Under the pieces are notes generated by a model. It was not told the origin of the DNA. It worked only from the letters and a program-made list of their open reading frames with translations, and ran no database searches. A stretch of 48,932 nucleotides of DNA from a virus. Lineage: Duplodnaviria; Heunggongvirae; Uroviricota; Caudoviricetes. Below, one piece after another: positions 8,178 through 45,665 of this stretch. The DNA lies in the IMG/VR virus record IMGVR_UViG_640753024_000009; one strand, given 5' to 3'. How positions within the stretch are numbered: position 1 is the first letter of the stretch; every line of letters starts with the position of its first letter. The translations under genes and the position numbers were made by a program.

Positions 8178-8796
8178 TTGGGTCTATCTCCACGTTTAAA
8201 CTAACAATTGGCGAGCCTGATATATATAATCCGCCATTTAATTTCACGCCACCATCACCATCTGCCGGTATATTTACGCCTATTTTCGCGTAAGATGTAC
8301 CAGCTATAAAAAACTCACCATCGACACCCGTTTCGAAATTTATTTCCTTTAATAATGAACGACAATTTTTTGCATCAAATATTTGTGCAATAAATGTATT
8401 CAATAGCTCTAAATCTAACCCCATACTTTTTAGCAGATATATTTTAATTGCGAATGTATACGGGTCGTCCCTGGGCGCGGCTTCAAACCACTCTCTCATT
8501 TTGCTCTCAAATCCAACTGTTAATAACGCTCGTTCAACAGCTCCACGCGTTCCGCGGTGCTTGTTCTGCCACGCAGCTGCTTTAATAATTTCGCGTTTTT
8601 GCTGCTCACTCCAGTCGGGGTTCCAGTACGTAACAGCATATTCCCATGCCAGCCAGGGTAATAAATCGGCGGGACATGTGTCTGGGTTTTTGATAATTCG
8701 AATATCGCCAGGCAGATCGCCAACGTGAGATAAAACAGATTCCAGCGCTCTCTCGGGGGTTATTGCGTTCGGAGGTAATACGCTTTGACTTGTCAT
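8170..8796 (-). CDS. Baseplate/tail protein I (P2 gpI-like)
   Basis: 208-aa product between J and the fibre gene, as in P2. Confidence 0.7.
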   Translation of the reverse strand: MTSQSVLPPNAITPERALESVLSHVGDLPGDIRIIKNPDTCPADLLPWLAWEYAVTYWNPDWSEQQKREIIKAAAWQNKHRGTRGAVERALLTVGFESKMREWFEAAPRDDPYTFAIKIYLLKSMGLDLELLNTFIAQIFDAKNCRSLLKEINFETGVDGEFFIAGTSYAKIGVNIPADGDGGVKLNGGLYISGSPIVSLNVEIDPNG

Positions 8797-8798
8797 GG

Positions 8799-9719
8799 CT
8801 ACCCCATTTGCACGCTGAGTTTGATTTCTGTGCAGTGCGGGGCCTGTCCGACGCCAGCGATCACGTCCTCTGTTGGCGATATCAGAATCACACGCTCAGT
8901 GCCGTCACGGTGTATCGCATCGTAAATTCCCGACAGAGCTGCCGTCGCCCCGATTTTATGTTGTGTAGCCACGTATATAGCTAAATCGCTCTGCGCGCCG
9001 TTGAGCAACACGTTCTGGTCGGGACCGAGCCCCGCTACGATAACGGCCTCAACCCGGTAATTCAGGTTCGACGCAGGTTTTACGGTCACGAAATCAGTTA
9101 GTGGCCGAGTGTCGTCAGGAGACAGGGCCGCATTCACTGTATTCAGTAGTGATTGCGGGGGTACACCGTCGCCTGTCCGGGACAAAACGTACATATCGAC
9201 GTACCCTGGCTGAGTCACAGGCGGGCCGTATGCCTGCGCTGACAGAACATCGGGATCACTCGATAGCGCGAAATAGTTATACGCGTTTGTACTGCCGGCA
9301 GTATTACGCGCGTACCATGATAGTTGTATGCGATGACGATACTCGTCGTCACTCTCGTAAACCGCTTCAGTCGGGGGGACTGAGTCGGGATTAGCTGGCG
9401 TTATCAACAGCCGCAGGCAGTCAAAATTAGCGCCAATCTGGTCGAGGTCAGTCCCTTTTGCAAACGCGAGCAATACAGCGAGCATCCCCTGATTTACCCG
9501 AGCTGTAATAATGATTTCTCTGTATGCAACTATTTCCAGCAGTTTAACTGCCGGGTCTGACTCCAGGAGTGCGTTAAATTGTGGATATAATATCTGCAGC
9601 TCTGACAGTAGATTAGATTTAACATCTGAAAATAACGGGGTTTTAACGAATGCTGGCGGCGGCAGCAGACTCATATCAATAGTTTTCACTATCGAGTTCT
9701 GAACTGTTGATGTTATCAA
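8799..9719 (-). CDS. Baseplate protein J (P2 gpJ-like)
   Basis: 306-aa product (P2 J is about 300 aa) downstream of W. Confidence 0.8.
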   Translation of the reverse strand: MITSTVQNSIVKTIDMSLLPPPAFVKTPLFSDVKSNLLSELQILYPQFNALLESDPAVKLLEIVAYREIIITARVNQGMLAVLLAFAKGTDLDQIGANFDCLRLLITPANPDSVPPTEAVYESDDEYRHRIQLSWYARNTAGSTNAYNYFALSSDPDVLSAQAYGPPVTQPGYVDMYVLSRTGDGVPPQSLLNTVNAALSPDDTRPLTDFVTVKPASNLNYRVEAVIVAGLGPDQNVLLNGAQSDLAIYVATQHKIGATAALSGIYDAIHRDGTERVILISPTEDVIAGVGQAPHCTEIKLSVQMG

Positions 9720-14441: not shown

Positions 14442-15751
14442 TATTCATCCCCTAAAATTGAACGCCCTGCCGCGACCAGCATCGAGACGTTTGCGGTTGT
14501 TCCTGTTGCCGTGGTGCTGCCGGCATCCTGAATAGTTTCCGGTGATTCAGTGCTCATGAGTGTATCGAGCGCCGTTTCTGTCCGCGCCTGCGCTGTTTGC
14601 GGTGCTGCCGCGAGGACAGCCTGCGCCTGCCCGACCGTCATCCCGGGGACGGCAGCGAGCGCTTTTGCCTGCGCCTCGCGCCCAACAGCTTCGGGACAGT
14701 TGATGATGGCCATCACGCGTGCCAGTTCGCTCGATGCGGCGTCCGCGCGAATCTGCTCCGCGTTGGACTCAACCGGCGCGACCGTAGTCGTAGCCGCGGT
14801 TTGTTCTGTGGTCGTGGTCTCCGCCGTGGTTTCTGTTGTACCTGGCATAAATCGCTCCGTTTTTGGTTTCAGTGCGTCGGCCATCACTGCGATAGCGTCC
14901 GCGTAATTAACGAGTTGATCAGCGAGACCAGATTTAATCGCGTCCGCGCCGATAAATACTGCGGCCTCTGTGGCCAGCACCCTGGATTTTTTCAGCCCGG
15001 TATAATCCGAGACTTTTTGCGCGAACTGCTCGCGTGTGCTGTTAATACTCAGCTGGAATTCGTCGCGAACGTCGTCGGGCAGCTGGGAATACGGGTTCCC
15101 GTCGACTTTGTGCGCGCCGGCGTAAATCAGCGTCACGTCAACGCCGGCAATCTCCAGCGCCTTTTCGACGCAGCGGTGAGCCATCAGGACACCGATTGAA
15201 CCAACCGTGCCGGTCTGCGTTATCAGCCGGCGCGAACACGCTGACGCCAGCAAATATGCGGCGCTGCAGGCCGTATCGCTGGCCAGCGCCCACACCGGTT
15301 TTTGCTCTCGCGCCCGGGCGATTAAATCAGCGGTATCAAACGCGCCGGCGACCTCACCGCCAGGGGAATCAATATCCAGCAGGATCCCCTTAACATCGGG
15401 ATCAGAAATCGCCTGCTGCAGGCGTTTTGCGATTCCGTCGTAACCACTCATCCCGCTGACCGGATTGATATAACCCAATTTATGAACCAGCGTCCCGGTA
15501 ACCGGCAGAACGGCTATACCACGCTCCACGCGATACGATTTCTGGCGTGTTCGCTCGCTGCTGTCCCACCCCATCGCGAGCGCGTTCATTTCGTCGCTGT
15601 TCATTACCTCTCCTGACGCTGTATCAATCAGTCGCCCGGTACCGAACCGGTCGCTCAGCGCAGAAAAAAATACCCGCGCGTAGGCGGGCTCCAGCAAAAG
15701 CGGTTGATTGAACGCCCTAGCGGCGAGGTGCGGAAAATTGTTCCACGGCAT
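14441..15751 (-). CDS. Head maturation protease / scaffold (lambda gpC, S49 peptidase family)
   Basis: 436 aa (lambda C is about 439 aa); S49/ClpP-like region followed by Thr/Ala-rich scaffold-like tail; start overlaps portal stop. Confidence 0.85.
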   Translation of the reverse strand: MPWNNFPHLAARAFNQPLLLEPAYARVFFSALSDRFGTGRLIDTASGEVMNSDEMNALAMGWDSSERTRQKSYRVERGIAVLPVTGTLVHKLGYINPVSGMSGYDGIAKRLQQAISDPDVKGILLDIDSPGGEVAGAFDTADLIARAREQKPVWALASDTACSAAYLLASACSRRLITQTGTVGSIGVLMAHRCVEKALEIAGVDVTLIYAGAHKVDGNPYSQLPDDVRDEFQLSINSTREQFAQKVSDYTGLKKSRVLATEAAVFIGADAIKSGLADQLVNYADAIAVMADALKPKTERFMPGTTETTAETTTTEQTAATTTVAPVESNAEQIRADAASSELARVMAIINCPEAVGREAQAKALAAVPGMTVGQAQAVLAAAPQTAQARTETALDTLMSTESPETIQDAGSTTATGTTANVSMLVAAGRSILGDE

Positions 15752-23543: not shown

Positions 23544-23792
23544 TTAGCAATCGACCAGATAGTCGTCTATATTTGATACACTTGCATAATTGCGGTCATC
23601 TGGTAATGGAAACAATGGATTATAAATAACCCATTGCGCCTCAGACATTCCATCCTGGCCTTGCTCGTTCTTACAAGAGCGCAGTTTATAGTGAATAATT
23701 TGTTCTACGTTGCTATATTCATTTCTTGCATAAATCTCATACTTATTATTACCTGGCAATAGCAATGTCTTAACAAGTTTTAACTTAGGCAT
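23544..23792 (-). CDS. Hypothetical protein (82 aa)
   Basis: ORF ending at the bidirectional terminator. Confidence 0.4.
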   Translation of the reverse strand: MPKLKLVKTLLLPGNNKYEIYARNEYSNVEQIIHYKLRSCKNEQGQDGMSEAQWVIYNPLFPLPDDRNYASVSNIDDYLVDC

Positions 23793-24092: not shown

Positions 24093-24572
24093 CTACGCTT
24101 CTGAGATAGATTTCTCAGCATTCACGAATGGAAGTGATTGTGGAACATCAGTTTGGCCTGCTGGCCAGCGGTAGCCTGTTACGCGGGAACGAGGAAAAGC
24201 TTTGATATTTACTTCATCTGCCTGGTTACCACCCAAAATCATTAAATCCCCGGCGGCATTTTTCCCGACAACAAAGCCAACGTGACCACCGCCAGACCGA
24301 GACAGAATAGCAATGCATCCATAGGCGGGTTCCTTCAGTTCATTACCCCAATCGAGATAAGAATTCGCAGACTCAAAACGCGTTGAGCGAATACCTACAC
24401 GTTCCAGCATTGCTCCGGTGAAGGCAGCGCACCACGGGGTTTCATCATCCTTAATGCCGCCGCGTTTGATATCTTTCCAGTACTGCACAATTTCTGCAGC
24501 ATGTTGCTTCCCTTTCATTTCCCGAATGCCGAGATTTTTTCGTGCCTCAATTAGCCATTTAGGATCGGTCAT
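24093..24572 (-). CDS. Putative endolysin, papain-fold cysteine peptidase type
   Basis: 159 aa; candidate catalytic Cys (ETPWCAAF) and His (GGGHVGFVVG) with spacing typical of CHAP/NlpC-P60 folds; sits between holin and lipoprotein. Confidence 0.5.
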   Translation of the reverse strand: MTDPKWLIEARKNLGIREMKGKQHAAEIVQYWKDIKRGGIKDDETPWCAAFTGAMLERVGIRSTRFESANSYLDWGNELKEPAYGCIAILSRSGGGHVGFVVGKNAAGDLMILGGNQADEVNIKAFPRSRVTGYRWPAGQTDVPQSLPFVNAEKSISEA

Positions 24573-28368: not shown

Positions 28369-29148
28369 ATGAGCAACAAAGATTTTTCACTTTTTTATTT
28401 TGCAACCATTGATCGGTCTTACTTCCTCGACAAACACAATTTTTATGTTGCTGAAGCCAGAAAGCGTCTATTTTCGCAGTTTAGCGATTCTGATCTTGAA
28501 GCTGAAGCCAGGCAGAGAGAACAAGATTACTATGAGGCCGCCGGTAAGCGTTTTGACCCCGATTATGACGACGAAGGGGCTATCTGTGAACAGGCTCATG
28601 ATGAAGGAATTTCACATTGGATTGCTCTCAGTGATATGAAAAATACGGTTTCACTTGCTCTGACAGCAGGAATGTTTCATCAGTTCGACAAGGAACTTAG
28701 AGAGAAGTGTATCAGAGAATTCAGCCATTGGCTCGACGCTAAATCCGTAACATCGATGATCTGGGACATTAGCTTCCCAAGGCTAATTGAAATTCTAGAA
28801 TGGATTGGGATGGATATCACCAGCAAGGCTTATTACGAAAAAATCGATGCCTGTCGCCAAGTGGTTAATGTTTATAAGCACGGTGATGGCCATGCCCATC
28901 GGGTGCTTTCCGTCGCGCATCCTGAGTATTATCAGGATATCAATATTCCAAGAGGCTACAGATTTAGTCTACGTCATGAGCAACTTGAGGTTACAGAAAC
29001 ACAGTTTATAGAGTTTGCAGATGCGATTACAGCTTTCTGGAATGATATCCCAACATACTGTATGCGCTCAGCTATTCGGGAAGAACCTGAATGGATAAAA
29101 GGCGAATATAAAAAACATGAGAAGAAAGTTAAAATGCTTCAGGACTAA
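28369..29148 (+). CDS. Hypothetical protein (259 aa), accessory island cargo
   Basis: SD GAGGGA 8 nt upstream of ATG at 28369; opposite strand to phage backbone; no recognised domain. Confidence 0.55.
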   Translation: MSNKDFSLFYFATIDRSYFLDKHNFYVAEARKRLFSQFSDSDLEAEARQREQDYYEAAGKRFDPDYDDEGAICEQAHDEGISHWIALSDMKNTVSLALTAGMFHQFDKELREKCIREFSHWLDAKSVTSMIWDISFPRLIEILEWIGMDITSKAYYEKIDACRQVVNVYKHGDGHAHRVLSVAHPEYYQDINIPRGYRFSLRHEQLEVTETQFIEFADAITAFWNDIPTYCMRSAIREEPEWIKGEYKKHEKKVKMLQD

Positions 29149-29233
29149 AATTCTTGATAATAGCAAGTGTATCCTACATGTAGACATTTGCCTGCCGTGT
29201 CTTTTAGCTACCCTAGCTGCGAGAACAATTACG

Positions 29234-29339
29234 AACTTCCGCTCCTCGCTCACAGCGAACTTTCAACTCAGTTAGCTTGCCCGCTTCGTACCAAAAGCGG
29301 GCATTGCTAACATCTATCTCCATCAATCTGTGGGAACAG
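29234..29339 (+). repeat. Structured island repeat, copy 1
   Basis: Shares CTCGCTCACAGCG box (29245-29257), hairpin GCCCGCTT...AAGCGGGC (29279-29302), GCTAACA and GTGGGAACAG boxes with copies 2 and 3. Confidence 0.7.
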
Positions 29340-29626
29340 CTCGCCGTAATAGCACATTGAATCCTATGTCTAAAAGCAGATGTTCTGGTTTGCCGGGAAA
29401 TTTACAAAATGACGGCGTCTCTTGTTAGAGGTTCTCCCTGCTTCACACTGCTGATTCTTCATGGATTTTAGTATAATTAGTGAAAAAAATTTTTTTGGTT
29501 GTTATCATATACATGAGGACTTCTTCAGAAGAACTGAGAAAAATTCGGGGTTCACTTAACACAATGACAATTAAGAAGATTAACTGTCTGGTAAGTGATT
29601 ATTTTATTCATTAAAAAACAAACATC

Positions 29627-30289
29627 ATGATAATTGACTTTATAAAAAGCAAGGAAGCCTTGCTAATATTGGCAATAACTGTTCTATCTTATATGTCTGC
29701 AATTTCATTTGAATATGGCTATGCATATCATTTTGATTATCCTATGGAGTTTATAACGTTAGATTCTAAATTTTTATTCGTGGGTATGTCATATTTATTT
29801 TTTAATATAATTTGTGTTATGTTGATGTTTTTTACTCCATGGCCTGAAAGTAAAGTAAAAGCAGTTAAAGTTACTGCAGTTACAGTTTTTATCATGATTG
29901 TTTTTATTGTTCAGTCTTATAGACATAAGACTGAATATGGTGGTTTTTTCGTTTTAAGTTTATCGATAGCAACAGTTACTTATATTATATACAAAATTGT
30001 TAAAAATCATAAACGTAATCCAAGTTATTTAATTTGGTCTGCAACCCTTCCCCTTATTGCCATAATGACATTTAGTTTCTTAATTGGTTTACAACAAGCG
30101 TCATTAAAAAAAGAATTTAGTTACTTTCATGATCAATCTAAAGACTACGTGATTATTAGGTTGTATGACGGTAACCTTGTCGCTAAAGAAGTAAATATAA
30201 AAGAGCGCAAGCTAGGGAGTGAGATATTATATATACCTAGCTATAACCCAGCCCCTATAACGTTAAATAAAATTAAAATAGAACAATAG
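29627..30289 (+). CDS. Multi-pass membrane protein (220 aa), very AT-rich
   Basis: At least four hydrophobic helices; low-GC coding sequence; flanked by repeat copies 1 and 2. Confidence 0.6.
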   Translation: MIIDFIKSKEALLILAITVLSYMSAISFEYGYAYHFDYPMEFITLDSKFLFVGMSYLFFNIICVMLMFFTPWPESKVKAVKVTAVTVFIMIVFIVQSYRHKTEYGGFFVLSLSIATVTYIIYKIVKNHKRNPSYLIWSATLPLIAIMTFSFLIGLQQASLKKEFSYFHDQSKDYVIIRLYDGNLVAKEVNIKERKLGSEILYIPSYNPAPITLNKIKIEQ

Positions 30290-30432
30290 ATTCATATAGT
30301 GGCCTTATGAAAAATAGGTCACTATCGTTGATATTTCATATGAATTTTTAACGACCTTGGTAGTAAAATTATCGTAAATCCCCTACATAACAAGACCATT
30401 TACTATAGATCTGTTTTACTCTCAATAAAATC

Positions 30433-30532
30433 AACTTCCGCTCCTCGCTCACAGCGGACCTTCAGTTTTTGTCCGCTTCGTGTCAGAAGCGGAAGTAGCT
30501 AACAACAGCCTATGTTGATTCAAGGGGAACAG
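30433..30532 (+). repeat. Structured island repeat, copy 2
   Basis: AACTTCCGCTCCTCGCTCACAGCG block identical to copy 1; hairpin TCCGCTTC...GAAGCGGA (30472-30493); GCTAACA; GGGGAACAG (30524-30532). Confidence 0.7.
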
Positions 30533-30611
30533 GTCACTGGGTTAATCTAATTATGTCCCTTTAGAACCATCTTTCTTAAGTGAATATATTTTCACTTTAT
30601 TTTCTACTGCC

Positions 30612-31991
30612 TCAGTCATAAGGTTTGTTTTTGGCTTTTGACATCATGAGAAGGAAATATGAAGGGTGGCTCTTTATTTCTGAAGAATGGCTTGTAATAT
30701 TAAAGACATCTTTTAGAATCGTAAAAGCTCCTGTAGCCAACGACACTGGATTTGGTGCACCAATAAAACCTATCAATGAAGGCACACTGTTAAGAAAAAG
30801 TTCTTTTTTACTCTTCCGCTTATAGGCTTGTATTTTTTGCTCAATATCTGTCAATCCTTCATCCCACACCCGCTCGACAAAATGTTGATTTATTAGTTGT
30901 CTCTTATATGGATCACTTTCTGCTTCTATATCATACGCAGCTTCACGTAGTACAGAGCGGAAAGAATTAAAACTCGGCTCGTAGTCAGTTCTAATTTTGT
31001 AGAGTTCACTTGGAGTCAGTCCCTCTAAGAATGGAACGTCTATAGAGAGTTTAACCCTCTGAACTTCATTCTTTTGATCAAGTTTACGAAGAATCTCTCC
31101 ATGAAACGGGCAATATGCCCCCAGGGATGCTCTACATGAATGCGCTTGGTTAAGGTCAGTAATAAGGTTTTTATAATGAAAGAGAACCGTACGGTTTTTT
31201 GCTCCCTGCACCCACCGTTCATAACTTTTTTTTCCGCTATGATTTCCCATGACAAGCTCCATAGATATGGAGCCATCATCATTATCAATGGCATTTTTTA
31301 TATGTTGATACATATATCCATTTGTATATAAACTTTCACAGTCTTTAATTTCCAACATAATTTCATTAGATAAAACATTTTTGTTTAATAACCGAATTTT
31401 ATTTGTATTACCTAGACGTTCTATATTCTTTACGGATAGTCTATTTTCATAAAGACGGGCAATGTTAGGAGGGAGATATCGATATATAAAATTAGCATCA
31501 GAGTTATCGTCTAAAATTCCATTGGCCCTCTCCGAATCTTTAATAGAAGATTCGCTGCGTACAAAAACGATAAACTCACCACGGATAAGATCAAAGTTTT
31601 CTTTAGCAAACCTGATAAATCTAGCAATTTCCTTCCTGAGATGTTCAACCTTCTCTTTTCTATCGCTTACAATAATTTTTTCAAATGCATTTTCTGTTAG
31701 ACTCACTCTGTATCGTAGGCTCAATGAATACAGAACATCATCAAGAATGACTCTGTCCATTGAAAACAGTCCACTCTTATACCTTTCAATATTACGATTT
31801 CCCGCCATGTAAACATTTAGCCGAGACTCCTGTACAGAATTTGCTTGCTCGATAATCAGTGAATCTATTCTTTTATTATATTCATCTAACTCAATTAGCA
31901 ATTCATTCAATCCAATATTTTCATATTCCTGATCTAAAAGTCGATCAACCCAGAAAAGGCTTTCTGTGAGGGCATAGAGGTTGTTGTACAT
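30612..31991 (-). CDS. Hypothetical protein (459 aa), AT-rich
   Basis: AGGA 7 nt upstream of ATG at 31991; convergent with the membrane protein gene; flanked by repeat copies 2 and 3; no recognised domain. Confidence 0.6.
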   Translation of the reverse strand: MYNNLYALTESLFWVDRLLDQEYENIGLNELLIELDEYNKRIDSLIIEQANSVQESRLNVYMAGNRNIERYKSGLFSMDRVILDDVLYSLSLRYRVSLTENAFEKIIVSDRKEKVEHLRKEIARFIRFAKENFDLIRGEFIVFVRSESSIKDSERANGILDDNSDANFIYRYLPPNIARLYENRLSVKNIERLGNTNKIRLLNKNVLSNEIMLEIKDCESLYTNGYMYQHIKNAIDNDDGSISMELVMGNHSGKKSYERWVQGAKNRTVLFHYKNLITDLNQAHSCRASLGAYCPFHGEILRKLDQKNEVQRVKLSIDVPFLEGLTPSELYKIRTDYEPSFNSFRSVLREAAYDIEAESDPYKRQLINQHFVERVWDEGLTDIEQKIQAYKRKSKKELFLNSVPSLIGFIGAPNPVSLATGAFTILKDVFNITSHSSEIKSHPSYFLLMMSKAKNKPYD

Positions 31992-32150
31992 ATCAGTTCC
32001 TTTTTACCAGGCTTCAGTCAGAGTACACTATCATTTTACATTTAAATGTACTTCCAAGCATCATGCTGTTAGTGCCGGATTATAACACTTGGCACCCGTA
32101 TGTTTGGATAACAAACTGCGTATAATCCTTGTGAGTTGTGATGTCTGTTT

Positions 32151-32250
32151 CTCGCTCACAGCGGGTCTTCAGTTGTTCGTCCACTCTGTGCCAGGAGCGG
32201 ACATTGATTATTCCTCACTGTAAAAATCTTAATGCTAACTAGTGGGAACT
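32151..32250 (+). repeat. Structured island repeat, copy 3
   Basis: CTCGCTCACAGCG (32151-32163); hairpin GTCCACTC...GAGCGGAC (32179-32202); GCTAACT and GTGGGAAC (32242-32249). Confidence 0.65.
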
Positions 32251-32271
32251 ATAAGTTGTCAATTGACATGA

Positions 32272-33123
<852 letters not shown>

Positions 33124-33203
33124 CCAATATATGGCAGTAATGAATATTTCGGGGATCGTGTTTGCTGCGGTCATGGTTACCATTATTAGTGTGCTGAACT
33201 GAA

Positions 33204-34439
33204 ATGACTAAGCGAAATAAAACCCCAAAATTTAACTTGGACAAAGCTCGCAAAAAAGAGATTCGCGCAGCCTTAACCAGCGTGGGTATGACCCCTCAAC
33301 ATGATGGCTGGGCGGATTTGTTTATGTACGCTTATACAGATGGCAGCAATTTAAACGGTTTGCAATTGGCCAAAGCCTTATCAGTGCATCCAACACTGAT
33401 AAATGGTTTATCGCGCGGCATCAAATTAAAACCAGAGAAAGCGCTCTCCAAAAAACGACCATCAAAACCTACGCTGGCCGATAAACGCCGCGAGGCCAAA
33501 CAGAAGGTCAATATGGGCTGGGAAGCGCTGATTCGCACTATGCCTATGCAAAAGCCAGGCGCACGCAAAAACCCTGAAACAGAAGCCCTTTGGGAGAATG
33601 CCCGTCGCCGTGGCACGTCCCAGGCCAGCACGCCAGCATTTACGCCGACAATCATCCCGCGCAAGGTTTCCGCTCAAATCAACACCGAATTACCAGGCCT
33701 GCAATCAACGCAGATGGAAACACCGAAACGGTATGATTCTGTGAGCATGACATCAAAAGTTACGACAAAGCTGGATAATCGCGTCCTACAGGATTTTCTG
33801 GCAAAACACATTCCAGCCAGCCAGCGTCGTGATGTTGAGCTTTATATCCACAAACACCAGCATGAAGCCACCACGACCATTGAACTGGTGCAGCGGTACC
33901 TGGATGATCAGGAAGAAAAGCAAATCATCCGAGAAGCCGAGAAGCTGGCCGACGTTGTTCCGGAACTGGTAGCCGATGATCGAATCATCATGTCGCAGGA
34001 AGTAGTGGTCGTCGTGGAGGAAGAGAAACCCGCGCCCGCGCTTGGCCAACCTGTCAAACTCCACAGTACCCGAACCGCGCAGCGCATCGTTGAGCAGCGC
34101 GACACGACGGCGCATATGCAGTTTGTTGAATGGGTATGGAATAATTTTGCTGGCCGTTGCGCGGTGACTGGCTGGCAGAACGGCGAACGATTGCAAGCGG
34201 CGCACATTGAGCCAGCTACCTCAGGCAATTTTAGCGCTGATAATGGCCTGTTGTTGACTCCAACGATACACGACTTACTAGACGCAGAGCTGATGGCCGT
34301 CAACCCTGAAACAATGACCGTACATTTTGCCCCAGGTATTGAGCTCGGCGCGATGTTTGAAGGCAAAGTGATTGAGCCTAAATTATGGCCGCTGAACATG
34401 GCCGCGTTGGTTAAACGCTGGAAAGAACGGAAATTCTGA
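33204..34439 (+). CDS. HNH nuclease domain protein (411 aa)
   Basis: C-terminal CAVTGWQNGERLQAAHIEPATSGNFSADNGLLLTPTIHDLLD fits an HNH motif; basic N-terminal 300 aa unassigned; 80 bp downstream of the GIY-YIG gene on the same strand. Confidence 0.6.
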   Translation: MTKRNKTPKFNLDKARKKEIRAALTSVGMTPQHDGWADLFMYAYTDGSNLNGLQLAKALSVHPTLINGLSRGIKLKPEKALSKKRPSKPTLADKRREAKQKVNMGWEALIRTMPMQKPGARKNPETEALWENARRRGTSQASTPAFTPTIIPRKVSAQINTELPGLQSTQMETPKRYDSVSMTSKVTTKLDNRVLQDFLAKHIPASQRRDVELYIHKHQHEATTTIELVQRYLDDQEEKQIIREAEKLADVVPELVADDRIIMSQEVVVVVEEEKPAPALGQPVKLHSTRTAQRIVEQRDTTAHMQFVEWVWNNFAGRCAVTGWQNGERLQAAHIEPATSGNFSADNGLLLTPTIHDLLDAELMAVNPETMTVHFAPGIELGAMFEGKVIEPKLWPLNMAALVKRWKERKF

Positions 34440-34570
34440 TTAAATATTTTAATCACCATCGTGCTGGCTGCCATCGCCTATATGGCGTTGCCTCATCACT
34501 CGAATCCGAATGCATAATCTTATCCGAGTGGGGAAAGTGCACCACCAAAACATCGAAACAGGAATAGAAA

Positions 34571-35131
34571 ATGAACGGAATATCAAAAATCATCTTAGCA
34601 CTGACCGCTGGATTTACGCTGTCCGGATGTGTAAGCCATACCCAAAAAAATTCACAACCAGATCCGGCTGCAATCGAGGCGGCAAAACTTGCGCAGTACA
34701 CCGATTCACAGCTTTGCCAGGCAGAAGATAATATAGAGCCATTGCTCAACCTTAATCCATCATCTCATCCTGAATTTAATGAAAATTATCGCCGCGCCCA
34801 GGCTATTAAAAAGGTGATCGCCTCTCGTAATTTAAGCTGCTACCGCCTGAAAATGGAGAGGGCAGAACAGGCCACACCAGCACGCCCGTTAAGCCCACGA
34901 CAAAAACAAGCGAGGGCATCCGCTGTTTGCCAGGCTTACGCCCAGCGTACCCGATTTGCGGATCCGACAGTCACATTTCAGATGTGCGGGAAAGGATTCC
35001 AGTCTACTTCGGCAAAATGTAAGGAAGATTTGGCGAGTTTTGAACGTGAGTCTCAGAAACTTAGAGGTACGGCCAGAGCGGAATATGTTGAAATTAGCAG
35101 TGCATTTCGGGCAGGCTGTACTTTAAAATAA
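34571..35131 (+). CDS. Lipoprotein (186 aa)
   Basis: Signal peptide with lipobox LTAGFTLSGC; AGGA upstream of ATG. Confidence 0.6.
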   Translation: MNGISKIILALTAGFTLSGCVSHTQKNSQPDPAAIEAAKLAQYTDSQLCQAEDNIEPLLNLNPSSHPEFNENYRRAQAIKKVIASRNLSCYRLKMERAEQATPARPLSPRQKQARASAVCQAYAQRTRFADPTVTFQMCGKGFQSTSAKCKEDLASFERESQKLRGTARAEYVEISSAFRAGCTLK

Positions 35132-35583
35132 AAAATGAAGTAATATTAATAACGCAATTGAATTTAAAAAAATCAATGCCTACTCGGTGCCATATACAGC
35201 CATTGTTATTAACAGCAGGGAATAATTCCACACTGAAATTAAATGTCTACCTTTTACAGTAGAAATAGTTCCTCCAGGACACTATCCATTGCCGGGCACA
35301 ATCACTCGGGGTATAACGATATAAAATATGTTCATGATAGTGCAGGTTCGTATATTAAGTTCAGCAGCGAAAACATGCCCTGCAGGTTTCCGGTTTTGGG
35401 AGCGTCGTTACAGGATCCTGTGCATACCGTTCCCATCTGTTGAATTAAAGGTTTCACAGCCTTTGCCGATATCACCTTTTACCTTGCCTGTGATGCGTTC
35501 AGTGCTCAGCGTTGTTTACTGTAGCTCTCGGAACTGATTACAGACCGCGTCTTAAAAACCAATCCTTACTCTAAAGGGAATTC

Positions 35584-36507
35584 ATGAGATTAAAATACTC
35601 AGTACTCTTACTCGCCATTGCCCTTACAGGCTGTGATAACAAAAAAGATGAGATCGGTTGTTCTTCGGAAATGACCCAATCAGCTCTCATGGATTTATTA
35701 AAAAAATCTGCTTATGAAGGACTCTCTGAACAGGTCGATAAATACCCTGATGTCACTAATCAGACCAAACGAAGCACACTGGACAAGATCAAACTAGCCG
35801 TCTCTGAAATCTCCACAACATCAAGTGACACGGGCAGCACAATGAAAACTTGTGAAGGGACCGTGACGATGACTCTACCTGCGAACGAGTACGTCCAGCT
35901 TTCTGATGCTTACAGAAAGAATTTTAATCGTAATCTCGATAAGCAAATGGAAAATCTGTTTTTGGAGAACAACGCAAACGCCTTTTCAAAACGTATCACC
36001 TACACCGTGCAGGCGACCGACGATCAGAAAAACGTTTTTGTAAAAACCTCTTCTGATAATCCGATATCAGTGGGCGCCGCTTTACTGACATCGCTTTCCA
36101 TTATCAACCCGATCGTTGAGCAGCAGAAAATCCAGCAGGCTAAGGATGCCCAACAGAGTCAAATTGAAGCGGAACAACAGGTGCAACTCAGGGCACAGGA
36201 ACAGGCCAGGTATGAGGCGGAGAAGCAAAAAGAGAGGCAGGCACAACTTCAGCCGCAAAAATCTGAAAGCCTTGATCAGTCCCGAATGGCATTTGCAAAT
36301 GCTGACTCTGATTTGAATACCGTCTGGAGCAAGTTAACCCCGGCGAAGAAAAAAGAGTTGCTGCCTTCTCAGCGCCAGTGGATCAAAACTAAGGATGCTA
36401 TGTGCGGTAAAGTTTCAATGCAGGGAACAGATGCTGAAGTCAAGAAAATGGTCGACTGCCAGACGCAAATGACCCTTTCAAGAATCGCTTTCCTCAGAAA
36501 CCAATAA
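35584..36507 (+). CDS. Lipoprotein with C-terminal LprI-like (DUF1311) domain
   Basis: Lipobox LLAIALTGC; Gln/Glu-rich coiled region; C-terminal LNTVWSKL...QRQWIKTKDAMCG...QTQMTLSRIAFL resembles DUF1311. Confidence 0.6.
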   Translation: MRLKYSVLLLAIALTGCDNKKDEIGCSSEMTQSALMDLLKKSAYEGLSEQVDKYPDVTNQTKRSTLDKIKLAVSEISTTSSDTGSTMKTCEGTVTMTLPANEYVQLSDAYRKNFNRNLDKQMENLFLENNANAFSKRITYTVQATDDQKNVFVKTSSDNPISVGAALLTSLSIINPIVEQQKIQQAKDAQQSQIEAEQQVQLRAQEQARYEAEKQKERQAQLQPQKSESLDQSRMAFANADSDLNTVWSKLTPAKKKELLPSQRQWIKTKDAMCGKVSMQGTDAEVKKMVDCQTQMTLSRIAFLRNQ

Positions 36508-36521
36508 CTGAAGTTTCCTTC

Positions 36522-36555
36522 AAGCTGGCGCCTGGTGTTAACCTGGTGCCAGCTT
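36522..36555. terminator. Long hairpin between convergent genes, possible terminator
   Basis: AAGCTGGCGCC...GGTGCCAGCTT stem of about 10 bp just after the stop at 36507; no clear U-tract. Confidence 0.3.
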
Positions 36556-42575: not shown

Positions 42576-42989
42576 ATGAGGATGAAGAATTTGATGCTTA
42601 GCGACCGTTTATCTCAAAGACGCAAACAGCTTGGTCTAACCCAACAACAGCTTGCTGATATGGTTGGAAGATCGAGTGTGAGCGTTTTTAAATGGGAAAG
42701 CGGACAAAATGAACCAAAAGGTCAGAACTTGCTGGCTTTGGCCAATGCACTTAAGTGTTCTGCCACATGGCTGCTTTTTGGTGACGAAGACCAGGCGCCA
42801 ACTCCGGTAGACGAATTACCAACAGAGCTGGATTCACGTCAAAAAAGATTGTTAGAGTTATTTGATTCATTACCCGAGTCAGAAAAAGAAAAGCAACTAA
42901 TTGAATTAGAAGATAAAGTTGAAAACTTTAATCGTTTATTTGAAGAGTTACTGGTTACCAGAAAGAAACTAACCCCCATCAAAAAATAA
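42576..42989 (+). CDS. CI-like prophage repressor (HTH, no obvious S24 peptidase domain)
   Basis: HTH LTQQQLADMVGRSSVSVFKWESG; start may be 42576 (leaderless-like), 42582 or 42594; strong terminator follows. Confidence 0.65.
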   Translation: MRMKNLMLSDRLSQRRKQLGLTQQQLADMVGRSSVSVFKWESGQNEPKGQNLLALANALKCSATWLLFGDEDQAPTPVDELPTELDSRQKRLLELFDSLPESEKEKQLIELEDKVENFNRLFEELLVTRKKLTPIKK

Positions 42990-42993
42990 AATA

Positions 42994-43673: not shown

Positions 43674-45665
43674 ATGACAGAGGGAAAGACTTCACCGGCA
43701 TATGGCACATGTGTCGAAGCGGTCTGGATGGAAGCGGAGCCTTGCAGTTCAGCAGATATCTCACAGGTTAGCGACCTGATGAAACTGCCTGCTCGTGAAC
43801 GCTTCGCCGCCGTCCTGCTGTTCAGCCACGATGCCAACGAAGTCGACAGTGAATTGCTTGCGCAGACGCGTGAATACCTGGAGATGCTCGACAACAGTGA
43901 TACTGACAGTGAGGATGAGGTTGACGCGTTTAACCGCATCGTTCTTGATGCCATGGTGGCGTGTAAGCCCATCGAGTACATGCATATTGCTGGATTGAAT
44001 AATCTGGTACATGCAATTTTGGCAAGTTGCGATACCCAGGAACAAAACCCGACCAGTTGGACTATCTCCAAATTTATAAAAAAATGGGTAGAGAATCCCG
44101 GTAAACGCGATGAAATGCTGCCGGAGGTAAAACCAGAAACAGCATCCGCACGTCCTTACCAACAGACTCACGCCACACTGGATCGTGAAATTGCCTGCGC
44201 CCTGTTACCCGTTGGCCCGGAAAAAATCACCCCCAGCATCCTGAAAGCGGCAGACGAAATAATCAGTCAGGACAGGGAAGATTTTAAACGCTGGTCAATG
44301 GCCTTGCGCACAACGGATCAGATCCTTGCCTATGACCGTGCATCAGTATTCGGTGTTATTCAGAGCGCCCCCGCAAAAGACACGTACCACTTCCCACAAT
44401 CCCTGCGCAGTCACATCGACAACTGGCTGCAAGCTAACGGGCAGCGTGATGCAAATGCTGTTGAAGAGAAGCCAAAGGAAGCAGCACCAAAGGATGATGT
44501 AAAAGTCACCAACCACGGCGGCGGACGATTCTCAATTGATGGGATGATGTCAGAAACACCCTCAAATCAGGGCGAAAAAAGCGAAGCTGCAAATGCTGGA
44601 GAACGTAGTTTGCAGCAGTTGCGTGAGCAGTTTGTCACGCCTCGCCATGTGTATGACGTACCTGAAAATAACGCCGTATCACAGAGGGAACCTGCAGCAA
44701 TTACCCTGGCAGAAGAGACTCCTCCACAAGAAAAACTTAGCGAGCAGGTAAAGGATCTGGTGCAGAACGTTGACGCGCTGGTTGAGCGGGTCCATACCGA
44801 AGAGCACAAGCGGCAGAATGCAATCTCAGCTATCGAAACGGAGTTAAAGGACTCCGACGACACAGATAACCTGGCATTGTGGAAGAACGTATTCAAAACC
44901 GATGAGCGCTTCACCAGTGCTTTCTCTCAGAACGGCGGCGGCACATCCATCAACGGCACTTATATAGCGATGAAAGCGACTCGCGAATTTGGGCCGTTTG
45001 GTATTGGCTGGGGTGTAGAGGTGGTGGAAGAGCGTTTTGATAAAGGCGCACCGATAGTTCGCAAAAAACAGGTTGGTGAAAAAATAGAATGGGATCTGAT
45101 TCAAGACGGTGTTGGCGGGTACCTATGTGAAATGCACCACACCATGAAAGTTAGAGTCTGGTACATATTGAATGGAGTGCGCGGTGAGTCCGAGGCTTAC
45201 GGATGCACACCTTATATCTACGACACTAAATACGGACCAACAAGCGACGGCGAAGCGCCGAAGAAATCCTGGACGGATGCTGTTAAGAAAGCGCTATCCC
45301 CTCTCGGATTCAGCGCCGATATTTTCATGGGCCTGTACGACAATCCGGAATACCGCCAGAGGAATAAAGCTGAGTTTGATATCAAGAATGCCAGCGAAAA
45401 TGCGGAAGATGCTACCCGTCTGCGTAAGGAACTGGATGAGAAGCTTATCAACGTTGCCAATACGCTGGCCGCCGCGGTAACCGCCAACGAAGTAAACAAG
45501 GTATTTGGCCTCATCGCCCGCGAAGTGGATGTACACAGGAAAGCAGCGGAAGCCAAAGGCGATAAAGAATATTCATCGTATCTGGGATCACGTCTGCGCC
45601 GTATCACCGACATCAAAACTGAACGCCTCGCCGCCCTCACCGCTGCACAGGAGCAAACCGCATGA
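43674..45665 (+). CDS. Large protein with C-terminal Rad52-family single-strand annealing domain
   Basis: C-terminal REFGPFGIGWGVEVVEE and KKSWTDAVKKALSPLGFSADIF resemble conserved Rad52/Sak motifs; N-terminal about 400 aa acidic and unassigned; start uncertain (track GTG 43599, first ATG 43674). Confidence 0.5.
   Translation: MTEGKTSPAYGTCVEAVWMEAEPCSSADISQVSDLMKLPARERFAAVLLFSHDANEVDSELLAQTREYLEMLDNSDTDSEDEVDAFNRIVLDAMVACKPIEYMHIAGLNNLVHAILASCDTQEQNPTSWTISKFIKKWVENPGKRDEMLPEVKPETASARPYQQTHATLDREIACALLPVGPEKITPSILKAADEIISQDREDFKRWSMALRTTDQILAYDRASVFGVIQSAPAKDTYHFPQSLRSHIDNWLQANGQRDANAVEEKPKEAAPKDDVKVTNHGGGRFSIDGMMSETPSNQGEKSEAANAGERSLQQLREQFVTPRHVYDVPENNAVSQREPAAITLAEETPPQEKLSEQVKDLVQNVDALVERVHTEEHKRQNAISAIETELKDSDDTDNLALWKNVFKTDERFTSAFSQNGGGTSINGTYIAMKATREFGPFGIGWGVEVVEERFDKGAPIVRKKQVGEKIEWDLIQDGVGGYLCEMHHTMKVRVWYILNGVRGESEAYGCTPYIYDTKYGPTSDGEAPKKSWTDAVKKALSPLGFSADIFMGLYDNPEYRQRNKAEFDIKNASENAEDATRLRKELDEKLINVANTLAAAVTANEVNKVFGLIAREVDVHRKAAEAKGDKEYSSYLGSRLRRITDIKTERLAALTAAQEQTA

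Follow-up and report, generated by a model that had tools for sequence, protein, structure and literature searches.

What do the two lipoprotein-like genes at the right end of the accessory island of an Escherichia coli prophage encode, and does one of them deserve its RefSeq name of lysozyme inhibitor? Our study addresses this question in the IMG/VR virus record IMGVR_UViG_640753024_000009 (Duplodnaviria; Heunggongvirae; Uroviricota; Caudoviricetes), a stretch of 48,932 nucleotides that we refer to as the window, whose source is the E. coli SE11 chromosome (NC_011415.1), where a lambdoid prophage is located at tRNA-Ser/mtfA. The two genes, called here A and B, span the range 34571-36507 that an initial annotation had singled out, which runs from the start of open reading frame (ORF) A to the end of ORF B. 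The best explanation of our results is that both are functional prophage cargo genes for exported, lipid-anchored periplasmic proteins, their acylation being a prediction. Protein B is a further DUF1311 family member that stands near ScwA, a cell-wall regulator of Salmonella, and its database name is probably misleading; protein A is a further member of an unstudied lipoprotein family of plasmids. Four of the points described below go beyond the initial annotation, namely a second conserved domain at the N-terminus of B, an Asp residue at position +2 of B that predicts sorting to the inner membrane, the mainly chromosomal location of the B family outside E. coli, and the relatives of A on IncN plasmids.

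Lipoprotein signals of genes A and B

The initial annotation had described two prophage lipoproteins with clear lipoboxes and their own Shine-Dalgarno sequences, and it had proposed lipobox prediction as a check. The elements that bear on this description are the following (aa, amino acids; nt, nucleotides):

34571-35131, plus strand: gene A, lipoprotein precursor of 186 aa (RefSeq WP_001013409.1, hypothetical protein)
34560-34563, plus strand: Shine-Dalgarno sequence of A, AGGA, 7 nt before the ATG, read from the sequence
35584-36507, plus strand: gene B, lipoprotein precursor of 307 aa (RefSeq WP_001237643.1, 'lysozyme inhibitor LprI family protein')
35574-35579, plus strand: Shine-Dalgarno sequence of B, AAGGGA, 4 nt before the ATG, kept in Citrobacter
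35584-35634, plus strand: signal peptide of B (aa 1-16) and lipid Cys17, followed by Asp18-Asn19

We applied a rule-based lipoprotein-signal test to the 187 ORFs of at least 60 aa found in the six frames of the window, asking for a Lys or Arg in the n-region and a hydrophobic h-region, for the absence of acidic residues ahead of the Cys, and for the motif [LVI][ASTVI][GAS]C with its Cys at position 13-36. Only A and B passed this test, in agreement with the earlier description. The N-terminus of A reads MNGISKIILALTAGFTLSG-C20, with a signal peptide of aa 1-19 and the lipobox LSGC, and that of B reads MRLKYSVLLLAIALTG-C17, with the lipobox LTGC; in both cases, the ATG is the earliest start codon possible in the ORF. 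The lipid Cys is invariant in the aligned sequences of both families (25 of 25 for B and 6 of 6 for A), and a strict lipobox is present in 85 of the 124 full-length distant relatives of B. In addition, the ratio of nonsynonymous to synonymous substitution rates, obtained from comparisons with relatives that are 87-99% identical, is 0.22 for A (against a 91% identical copy) and 0.18-0.27 for B; both genes are under purifying selection. We also considered a common origin of A and B and rejected it, because in a profile comparison of the two proteins nothing beyond their signal peptides could be aligned.

The placement of both genes at the right end of the accessory island proved correct as well, since A and B are the last two plus-strand genes of the island that occupies 28369-36507, and gene B is oriented against phage transcription. 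With these characteristics, A and B look like self-contained cargo genes ("morons"), and they are plausible candidates for lysogenic conversion, as had been suggested for them.

Domains, relatives and possible role of protein B

Our analyses sustain the previous reading of B as a combination of a Gln/Glu-rich segment with a C-terminal region of the DUF1311/LprI type, and they add a further domain to it. The AlphaFold model of B, built with 25 homologues, has a mean predicted local distance difference test (pLDDT) score of 85 and consists of an alpha/beta N-domain, a long helix rich in Gln and Glu, and a three-helix DUF1311 head, which correspond to these segments of the gene:

35656-36063, plus strand: N-terminal alpha/beta domain of B, approximately aa 25-160, with invariant Cys26 and Cys90
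36061-36267, plus strand: Gln/Glu-rich helical stalk of B, approximately aa 160-228, whose length differs among species
36271-36495, plus strand: C-terminal DUF1311/LprI three-helix domain of B, aa 230-304, with invariant Cys274 and Cys292

The Pfam family PF07007 (LprI/DUF1311) matches residues 230-304 of B with an E-value of 5.9e-8 and a score of 33.5 bits, against a cut-off of 22, and the DUF1311 helical fold is present in the model together with its conserved cysteine pair. The stalk appears in the model as a single helix that covers residues 160-221; residues 176-229 are composed of 31% Gln and 15% Glu, and this region coincides with alignment columns rich in insertions and deletions (columns 200-290). 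As for the N-domain, it carries the conserved motifs S-x-D-x-x-S-x-x-K-x-C and Y-T-x-Q-x-T-D-D and corresponds to no Pfam family; its structural matches are a weak but consistent set of NTF2-like proteins, so that the domain may be NTF2-like, an assignment made with low confidence. C26, C90, C274 and C292 are the invariant non-lipid cysteines of B, and we infer that they form two intradomain disulfides.

In E. coli, an Asp at position +2 followed by a suitable residue at +3 constitutes a Lol-avoidance signal (PMC9595528). The lipid Cys of B is followed by Asp and then by Asn, and B is therefore predicted to be retained in the inner membrane. Within the B family, Asp is the commonest +2 residue without being universal, and Gly, Ser and Asn occur in this position too.

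An exhaustive profile search with B identified 233 cluster representatives (E < 1e-10), most of which are about 300 aa long, match B from end to end and carry a lipobox; the close homologues are mostly 300-333 aa. The gene is present in approximately 441 of the 5426 complete E. coli genomes (about 8%), since the 561 hits obtained in this species are made up of about 441 genes and 120 CRISPR (clustered regularly interspaced short palindromic repeats) spacers, and all of the E. coli neighbourhoods that we examined belong to one prophage family. Neither A nor B is present in 50,697 isolated phage genomes. A Klebsiella copy, 85-86% identical, resides on plasmids of about 110 kb, and the one plasmid examined contains phage tail, primase and dnaE genes, which identifies it as a phage-plasmid, of the SSU5-like kind. 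As about 8% of the complete E. coli genomes and these Klebsiella phage-plasmids carry B, any change that it causes in the wall would be widespread. In Citrobacter freundii and Proteus vulgaris, the B homologue is chromosomal and has no phage genes nearby; in Proteus it is surrounded by core genes, and in C. freundii it occupies a single conserved locus. The sequence that precedes the gene is also held in common with Citrobacter:

35350-35583, plus strand: upstream region travelling with B, which aligns with the region 5' of the chromosomal Citrobacter homologue

This common upstream sequence of about 230 bp, found in both the E. coli prophage and the Citrobacter chromosome, suggests that B was captured together with its own control region. 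We presume that 35350-35583 is the native promoter/5' untranslated region of B; the promoter scan found no plus-strand sigma-70 match in it, and it has no Rfam family.

The closest studied relative of B is ScwA (SL1344_0490) of Salmonella Typhimurium, and from the sequences available this relationship probably extends across both domains. ScwA is a periplasmic cell-wall regulator whose 275 aa include an LprI domain at the C-terminus and conserved cysteines at positions 30, 100, 237 and 259, and which is stabilised by disulfides; it increases the abundance of MltD, a lytic transglycosylase, causes lysis when overproduced, and affects murein hydrolases and virulence in Salmonella, and the deletion of its gene leaves lysozyme sensitivity unaltered (PMC7933661). 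We compared B with the 85-residue C-terminal fragment of ScwA (P0319), whose identity was confirmed by its ybaP/ybaK/ushA context. Both proteins end in a PF07007 domain, with 35% identity over 72 residues (E 3e-12), and both present the same four-cysteine layout (C30/C100/C237/C259 in ScwA and C26/C90/C274/C292 in B), the spacing of the N-domain cysteines being 70 in ScwA and 64 in B. At the family level, the peptide around Cys100 of ScwA, NANLRTCSATVAM, which we read from the published mutagenesis primers, coincides with NSTLRTCSATVSL of the B family in 9 of 13 residues, a comparison confined to primer-derived peptides. Furthermore, both are periplasmic proteins encoded by genes of low GC content acquired horizontally. 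The differences between them concern the anchor, the length and the genomic site: ScwA is a soluble protein with a signal-peptidase-I signal and no lipobox at its N-terminus (P0312), in contrast to the lipoprotein B with its Asp at +2; ScwA and its orthologues measure 275-278 aa, whereas B has 307 aa and a longer Gln/Glu stalk; and ScwA occupies a fixed chromosomal site between ybaP and copA, whereas B occupies a prophage. Because ScwA is soluble and shorter, B falls outside its orthologue group, and ScwA is the only studied protein whose architecture appears to be that of B. Genome-collection scans with a cloning primer and with a degenerate C-terminal pattern gave no match to full-length ScwA, and a protein search with the concatenated primer-derived ScwA peptides returned only the C-terminal fragment and a deletion variant. 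All four contigs shown with the C-terminus of Salmonella scwA are interrupted at one and the same position within the gene, so that a fragment of 85 codons remains.

DUF1311 proteins are also known as predicted or cognate immunity proteins encoded beside type VI effectors of the lysozyme-like or transglycosylase type. Because ScwA controls MltD and single-domain DUF1311 proteins are proposed or reported to be immunity proteins against type VI effectors that degrade the wall, we propose by analogy that the partner of B is a murein glycosidase, either foreign or belonging to the cell itself, a reading that we put forward tentatively, as quite possible but somewhat short of probable. According to this proposal, B would be held in the inner membrane by its lipid anchor, with the N-terminal alpha/beta domain next to the anchor, and the stalk helix, with some 62 residues and hence a length of about 9 nm when straight (0.15 nm per residue), would carry the DUF1311 head toward the murein. 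There, the disulfide-containing head would bind an enzyme that cleaves murein glycan, of the lytic transglycosylase or lysozyme-like muramidase type, and the phage-borne protein would in this way change the wall response of the lysogen to such enzymes, whether foreign (a phage tail or type VI muramidase) or its own (MltD-like). We infer in this scheme the membrane location, the disulfides, the stalk geometry and the binding partner alike. As a common prophage gene tied to ScwA, B offers a concrete lead on murein hydrolases and virulence.

It is important to consider that several observations weigh against this proposal. First, the chromosomal, phage-free copies of Citrobacter and Proteus indicate that the core role of B need not involve phages or competitors. 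Second, none of the contexts examined (SE11, E62, GF43, Citrobacter, Proteus and the Klebsiella phage-plasmid) has a gene for a binding partner, an effector or a type VI component next to B. Third, the +2 residue is not conserved, so the picture of a stalk rooted in the inner membrane may fit some members of the B family only. Fourth, the homology between the N-domains of B and ScwA is deduced from short primer-derived peptides, and the promoter scan detected no promoter for A or B. Lastly, B probably does not regulate the lysin of its own prophage (24093-24572, minus strand; RefSeq TIGR02594 family), because this lysin has a borderline CHAP-domain match (25.9 bits against a cut-off of 26) and not a glycosidase one, and CHAP enzymes are not glycosidases, being neither lysozymes nor transglycosylases.

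The proposal that B binds a murein glycosidase has two branches, which differ in whose enzyme is bound. In the foreign-enzyme branch, which we consider possible but on the unlikely side, B would serve as an orphan factor of immunity or exclusion, protecting the host by neutralising incoming murein-cleaving enzymes in the periplasm, such as type VI effectors or the tail-tip lysozymes and transglycosylases of superinfecting phages. DUF1311 proteins have been predicted or reported as immunity partners of cell-wall type VI effectors, and the single-domain ones of type VI systems (Salmonella Dublin SED_RS06230, Etsi4 of enterohaemorrhagic E. coli and the Pantoea orphan immunity genes), as well as Vibrio cholerae TsiV3, are periplasmic and have the DUF1311 helical head, as B does. 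The head of B resembles TsiV3, a similarity that is not specific; in addition, B shares a prophage hotspot with the defence gene PD-T4-3 and recurs on temperate phages and phage-plasmids. However, SED_RS06230, the one putative DUF1311 immunity protein whose size we compared, is a single-domain protein of 146 aa located beside a putative effector, whereas B has about 300 aa, two domains and a lipid anchor, and an effector gene is adjacent to it in none of the contexts examined. This branch also finds no support in PADLOC or in the exclusion families, which gave no match, and the non-mobile chromosomal copies of Citrobacter and Proteus point to a housekeeping origin.

Such an origin agrees with the endogenous branch, in which B would act as ScwA does, adjusting the levels of endogenous murein hydrolases (e.g., MltD), or their stability, for envelope homeostasis, with no direct role against phages or competitors. 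The position of ScwA as the closest characterised relative, with the shared cysteine pattern, the chromosomal copies among the core genes of Proteus and at a single conserved locus of C. freundii, and the strong purifying selection on B are all in line with it. We nevertheless regard this branch as rather unlikely: ScwA is a soluble protein of 275 aa, while B is lipid-anchored with a longer stalk; the identity between them is just 35%, in the single domain that can be compared; and there is no clear reason for temperate phages to carry such a regulator repeatedly.

It seems to us improbable that B represents an undescribed phage-carried envelope guard, that is, a stalked DUF1311 protein of the inner membrane that extends to the murein layer and there inhibits the muramidase brought in by a phage tail or a type VI spike. 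If this were true, B would be the prophage counterpart of T4 Spackle, derived from a domestic cell-wall regulator of the ScwA type, and the label 'lysozyme inhibitor' would be right in spirit, the target being microbial and not animal enzymes.

The literal sense of that label goes back to LprI (Rv1541c) of Mycobacterium tuberculosis, from which the PF07007 family takes its name and which is reported as a lysozyme inhibitor in work cited in PMC7933661. LprI is, like B, a lipoprotein with a DUF1311 domain; unlike B, it contains an MliC domain, and B adds an unrelated alpha/beta N-domain and a long stalk. The authors of the ScwA study argue that the MliC domain of LprI is sufficient for lysozyme inhibition and that no experiment links PF07007 itself to inhibition (PMC7933661). 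We searched B against Pfam and NCBIfam at E-values up to 0.1 and found neither MliC/PliC (PF09864) nor another known inhibitor domain (Ivy, PliG). We do not think that B is an inhibitor of animal c-type lysozyme, and its being a true inhibitor of the host enzyme, with lysogenic conversion to innate-immune resistance as the outcome, is very unlikely. In favour of this reading are the names used in Pfam and RefSeq, the export of B to the periplasm, which is also the site of action of known inhibitors, and the lysozyme inhibition reported for LprI in the work cited by the ScwA authors; against it, B has no inhibitor domain, the inhibition by LprI is ascribed by these authors to MliC, and the deletion of scwA had no effect on lysozyme sensitivity (PMC7933661). 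Thus, while the idea of lysogenic conversion is plausible for A and B as self-contained cargo, the lysozyme resistance attached to it has the Pfam name as its one source, and 'lysozyme inhibitor LprI family protein', a name assigned automatically, should not be taken for evidence of such resistance.

Protein A and its plasmid relatives

The mature part of A is all-helical and contains six invariant cysteines (49, 90, 120, 139, 150 and 183), in a model of moderate confidence (pLDDT 75; predicted template modelling score 0.38) whose fold matches are generic helical bundles with a high root-mean-square deviation and are thus uninformative. The protein has no family in Pfam, where PF07007 does not match it either, nor in NCBIfam, PHROGs or PADLOC, and no sequence match in the PDB. 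Its +2 residue is Val, for which default sorting to the outer membrane is expected, and A is probably sent there.

A word-indexed protein search with A returned five clusters only, and a tblastn search identified homologues on 169 plasmids, 121 of them conjugative, with 55% identity over residues 19-185 (E 4e-49); the two plasmids examined are both IncN. The IncN plasmid lipoprotein (WP_101972615.1 / WP_001567334.1) shares 55% identity with A across 90% of its length and keeps the lipobox and the six cysteines, and it differs from A in its setting, being encoded in the plasmid backbone, whereas A is carried by a prophage next to an HNH gene. In the second IncN plasmid, the A homologue is the first in a series of small hypothetical genes close to the relaxase gene. 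Among the 5426 complete E. coli genomes, gene A is present in five. These results place an unstudied lipoprotein family of IncN plasmids on phage-type elements as well. The neighbour of A in the window is the following:

33204-34439, plus strand: HNH_2 endonuclease-like gene of 411 aa (Pfam PF13391), directly upstream of A

Another assembly contains the pair formed by A and the HNH_2 gene, 91% identical, adjacent to icd and with an integrase at its side, and the HNH gene is absent beside a 47% identical homologue of A and in the IncN plasmids. A and HNH_2 move together as a cassette, and the link between them is physical and not demonstrably functional; we considered the HNH gene as a conserved partner of A and rejected it, given its absence beside the distant homologues.

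Known exclusion lipoproteins are small, rich in disulfides and subject to default outer-membrane sorting, and T5 Llp, phi80/N15 Cor, lambda Bor, TraT and TrbK are all small envelope lipoproteins expressed from mobile elements. A and B resemble these proteins in being envelope lipoproteins encoded on mobile elements. The serum resistance and entry exclusion that the initial annotation had listed among the possible roles of A and B did not find support, as neither protein had a meaningful match to the exclusion and serum-resistance lipoproteins in Pfam, NCBIfam, PHROGs or PADLOC; the sole traces were a TrbK match to the signal peptide of B and a VirB7 signal-peptide match, with E-values of about 0.08, far under the cut-offs.

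In the case of A, we weighed the possibility of an exclusion function, in which the lipoprotein would stop DNA from entering at an envelope step, in conjugation or in phage adsorption and injection, and we hold this to be distinctly unlikely. It would explain the retention of the gene by both IncN conjugative plasmids and prophage-type elements, since homologues are found on the 169 plasmids mentioned above (121 conjugative; two examined, both IncN) and on integrative elements too, and A is a small, disulfide-rich lipoprotein with default outer-membrane sorting, like the known exclusion lipoproteins. Against it, A matches neither TrbK, Eex, TraT, Llp or Cor nor any PHROG or PADLOC model, its fold matches are the non-specific helical bundles of high deviation, the homologue of the second IncN plasmid lies beside the relaxase gene and away from the mating-pair genes, and the gene is rare in E. 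coli (five of 5426 genomes). FipA, the fertility-inhibition protein of IncN plasmids, acts on the coupling protein TraG, and fipA is located at the end of the transfer region. We also considered the identification of A with FipA and find it unlikely, because TraG is taken to act on the cytoplasmic side and fipA has that terminal position. A is best described as a small, disulfide-rich helical lipoprotein of a family common to IncN plasmids, for which a role in envelope binding or exclusion is a guess.

The cargo island, its neighbours and spacers against the prophage

The replication, Q, lysis and morphogenesis genes of the SE11 prophage are on the minus strand, and they flank the island at 28369-36507, whose genes are mostly on the plus strand and whose GC content is 41.7%, against 48.1% in the whole window. 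Two further features of the island and its right border are the following:

32272-33123, plus strand: PD-T4-3, GIY-YIG (LEM-3-like), a known anti-phage gene (PADLOC E 6.9e-138)
36523-36554, strand not assigned: very stable hairpin separating gene B from the ORF6N anti-repressor gene, which converges on it (-28.2 kcal/mol, z = -4.9 relative to shuffled sequences)

Given the presence of PD-T4-3, the island can be regarded as a prophage defence/cargo hotspot. In the three E. coli prophages whose flanks were examined, B keeps a fixed place beside the ORF6N gene and the cargo to its left varies, and in every gene-bearing sampled row of a wider search the match covers the LprI/ORF6N pair; the locus is a variable cargo hotspot with gene B at its fixed edge. 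The hairpin that follows B is probably a transcript end or a stabiliser; it has no U-tract on either strand, and the terminator scan made no call there. The 452 bp spacer between A and B contained no promoter, no Rfam element and, on six-frame translation, no hidden gene.

The rest of the island, at 28369-31991, includes a plus-strand ORF of 259 aa whose sole match is a PHROG of unknown function, a plus-strand ORF of 220 aa with a 7TMR-DISM membrane-domain match below the threshold, and a minus-strand ORF of 459 aa without an informative family. Elsewhere in the window, a helix-turn-helix gene divergent from cro (approximately 42582-42990), which presumably encodes the prophage repressor, has an annotated frameshift in SE11 and is intact in strain E62.

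Our study also identified 32-nt type I-E CRISPR spacers of other E. coli strains that are identical to two sites of gene B, 35584-35615 and 36170-36201, with correct protospacer adjacent motifs at 35616-35618 (ATG, minus strand) and 36167-36169 (AAG), respectively. The spacer against 35584-35615 is present in about 120 of the 5426 complete E. coli genomes, and it occurs together with gene B in at most one genome, compared with about 10 expected if the two were independent, a deficit that shared ancestry could explain. We rejected the notion that the spacers single out gene B, because six spacers in one array span the whole prophage. This is the case of strain GCM39-10-2-9-3-1 (locus L016), where six of the 52 spacers extracted from two arrays are directed against the prophage, their targets being 8465-8496, 9216-9247, 14448-14479, 23600-23631, 36170-36201 and 44111-44142. 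The spacer target is the whole phage and not gene B, and a distribution of six spacers across the whole prophage implies that this phage family has been actively infectious. Five of the six spacers are consecutive in the array, which looks like the result of primed adaptation.

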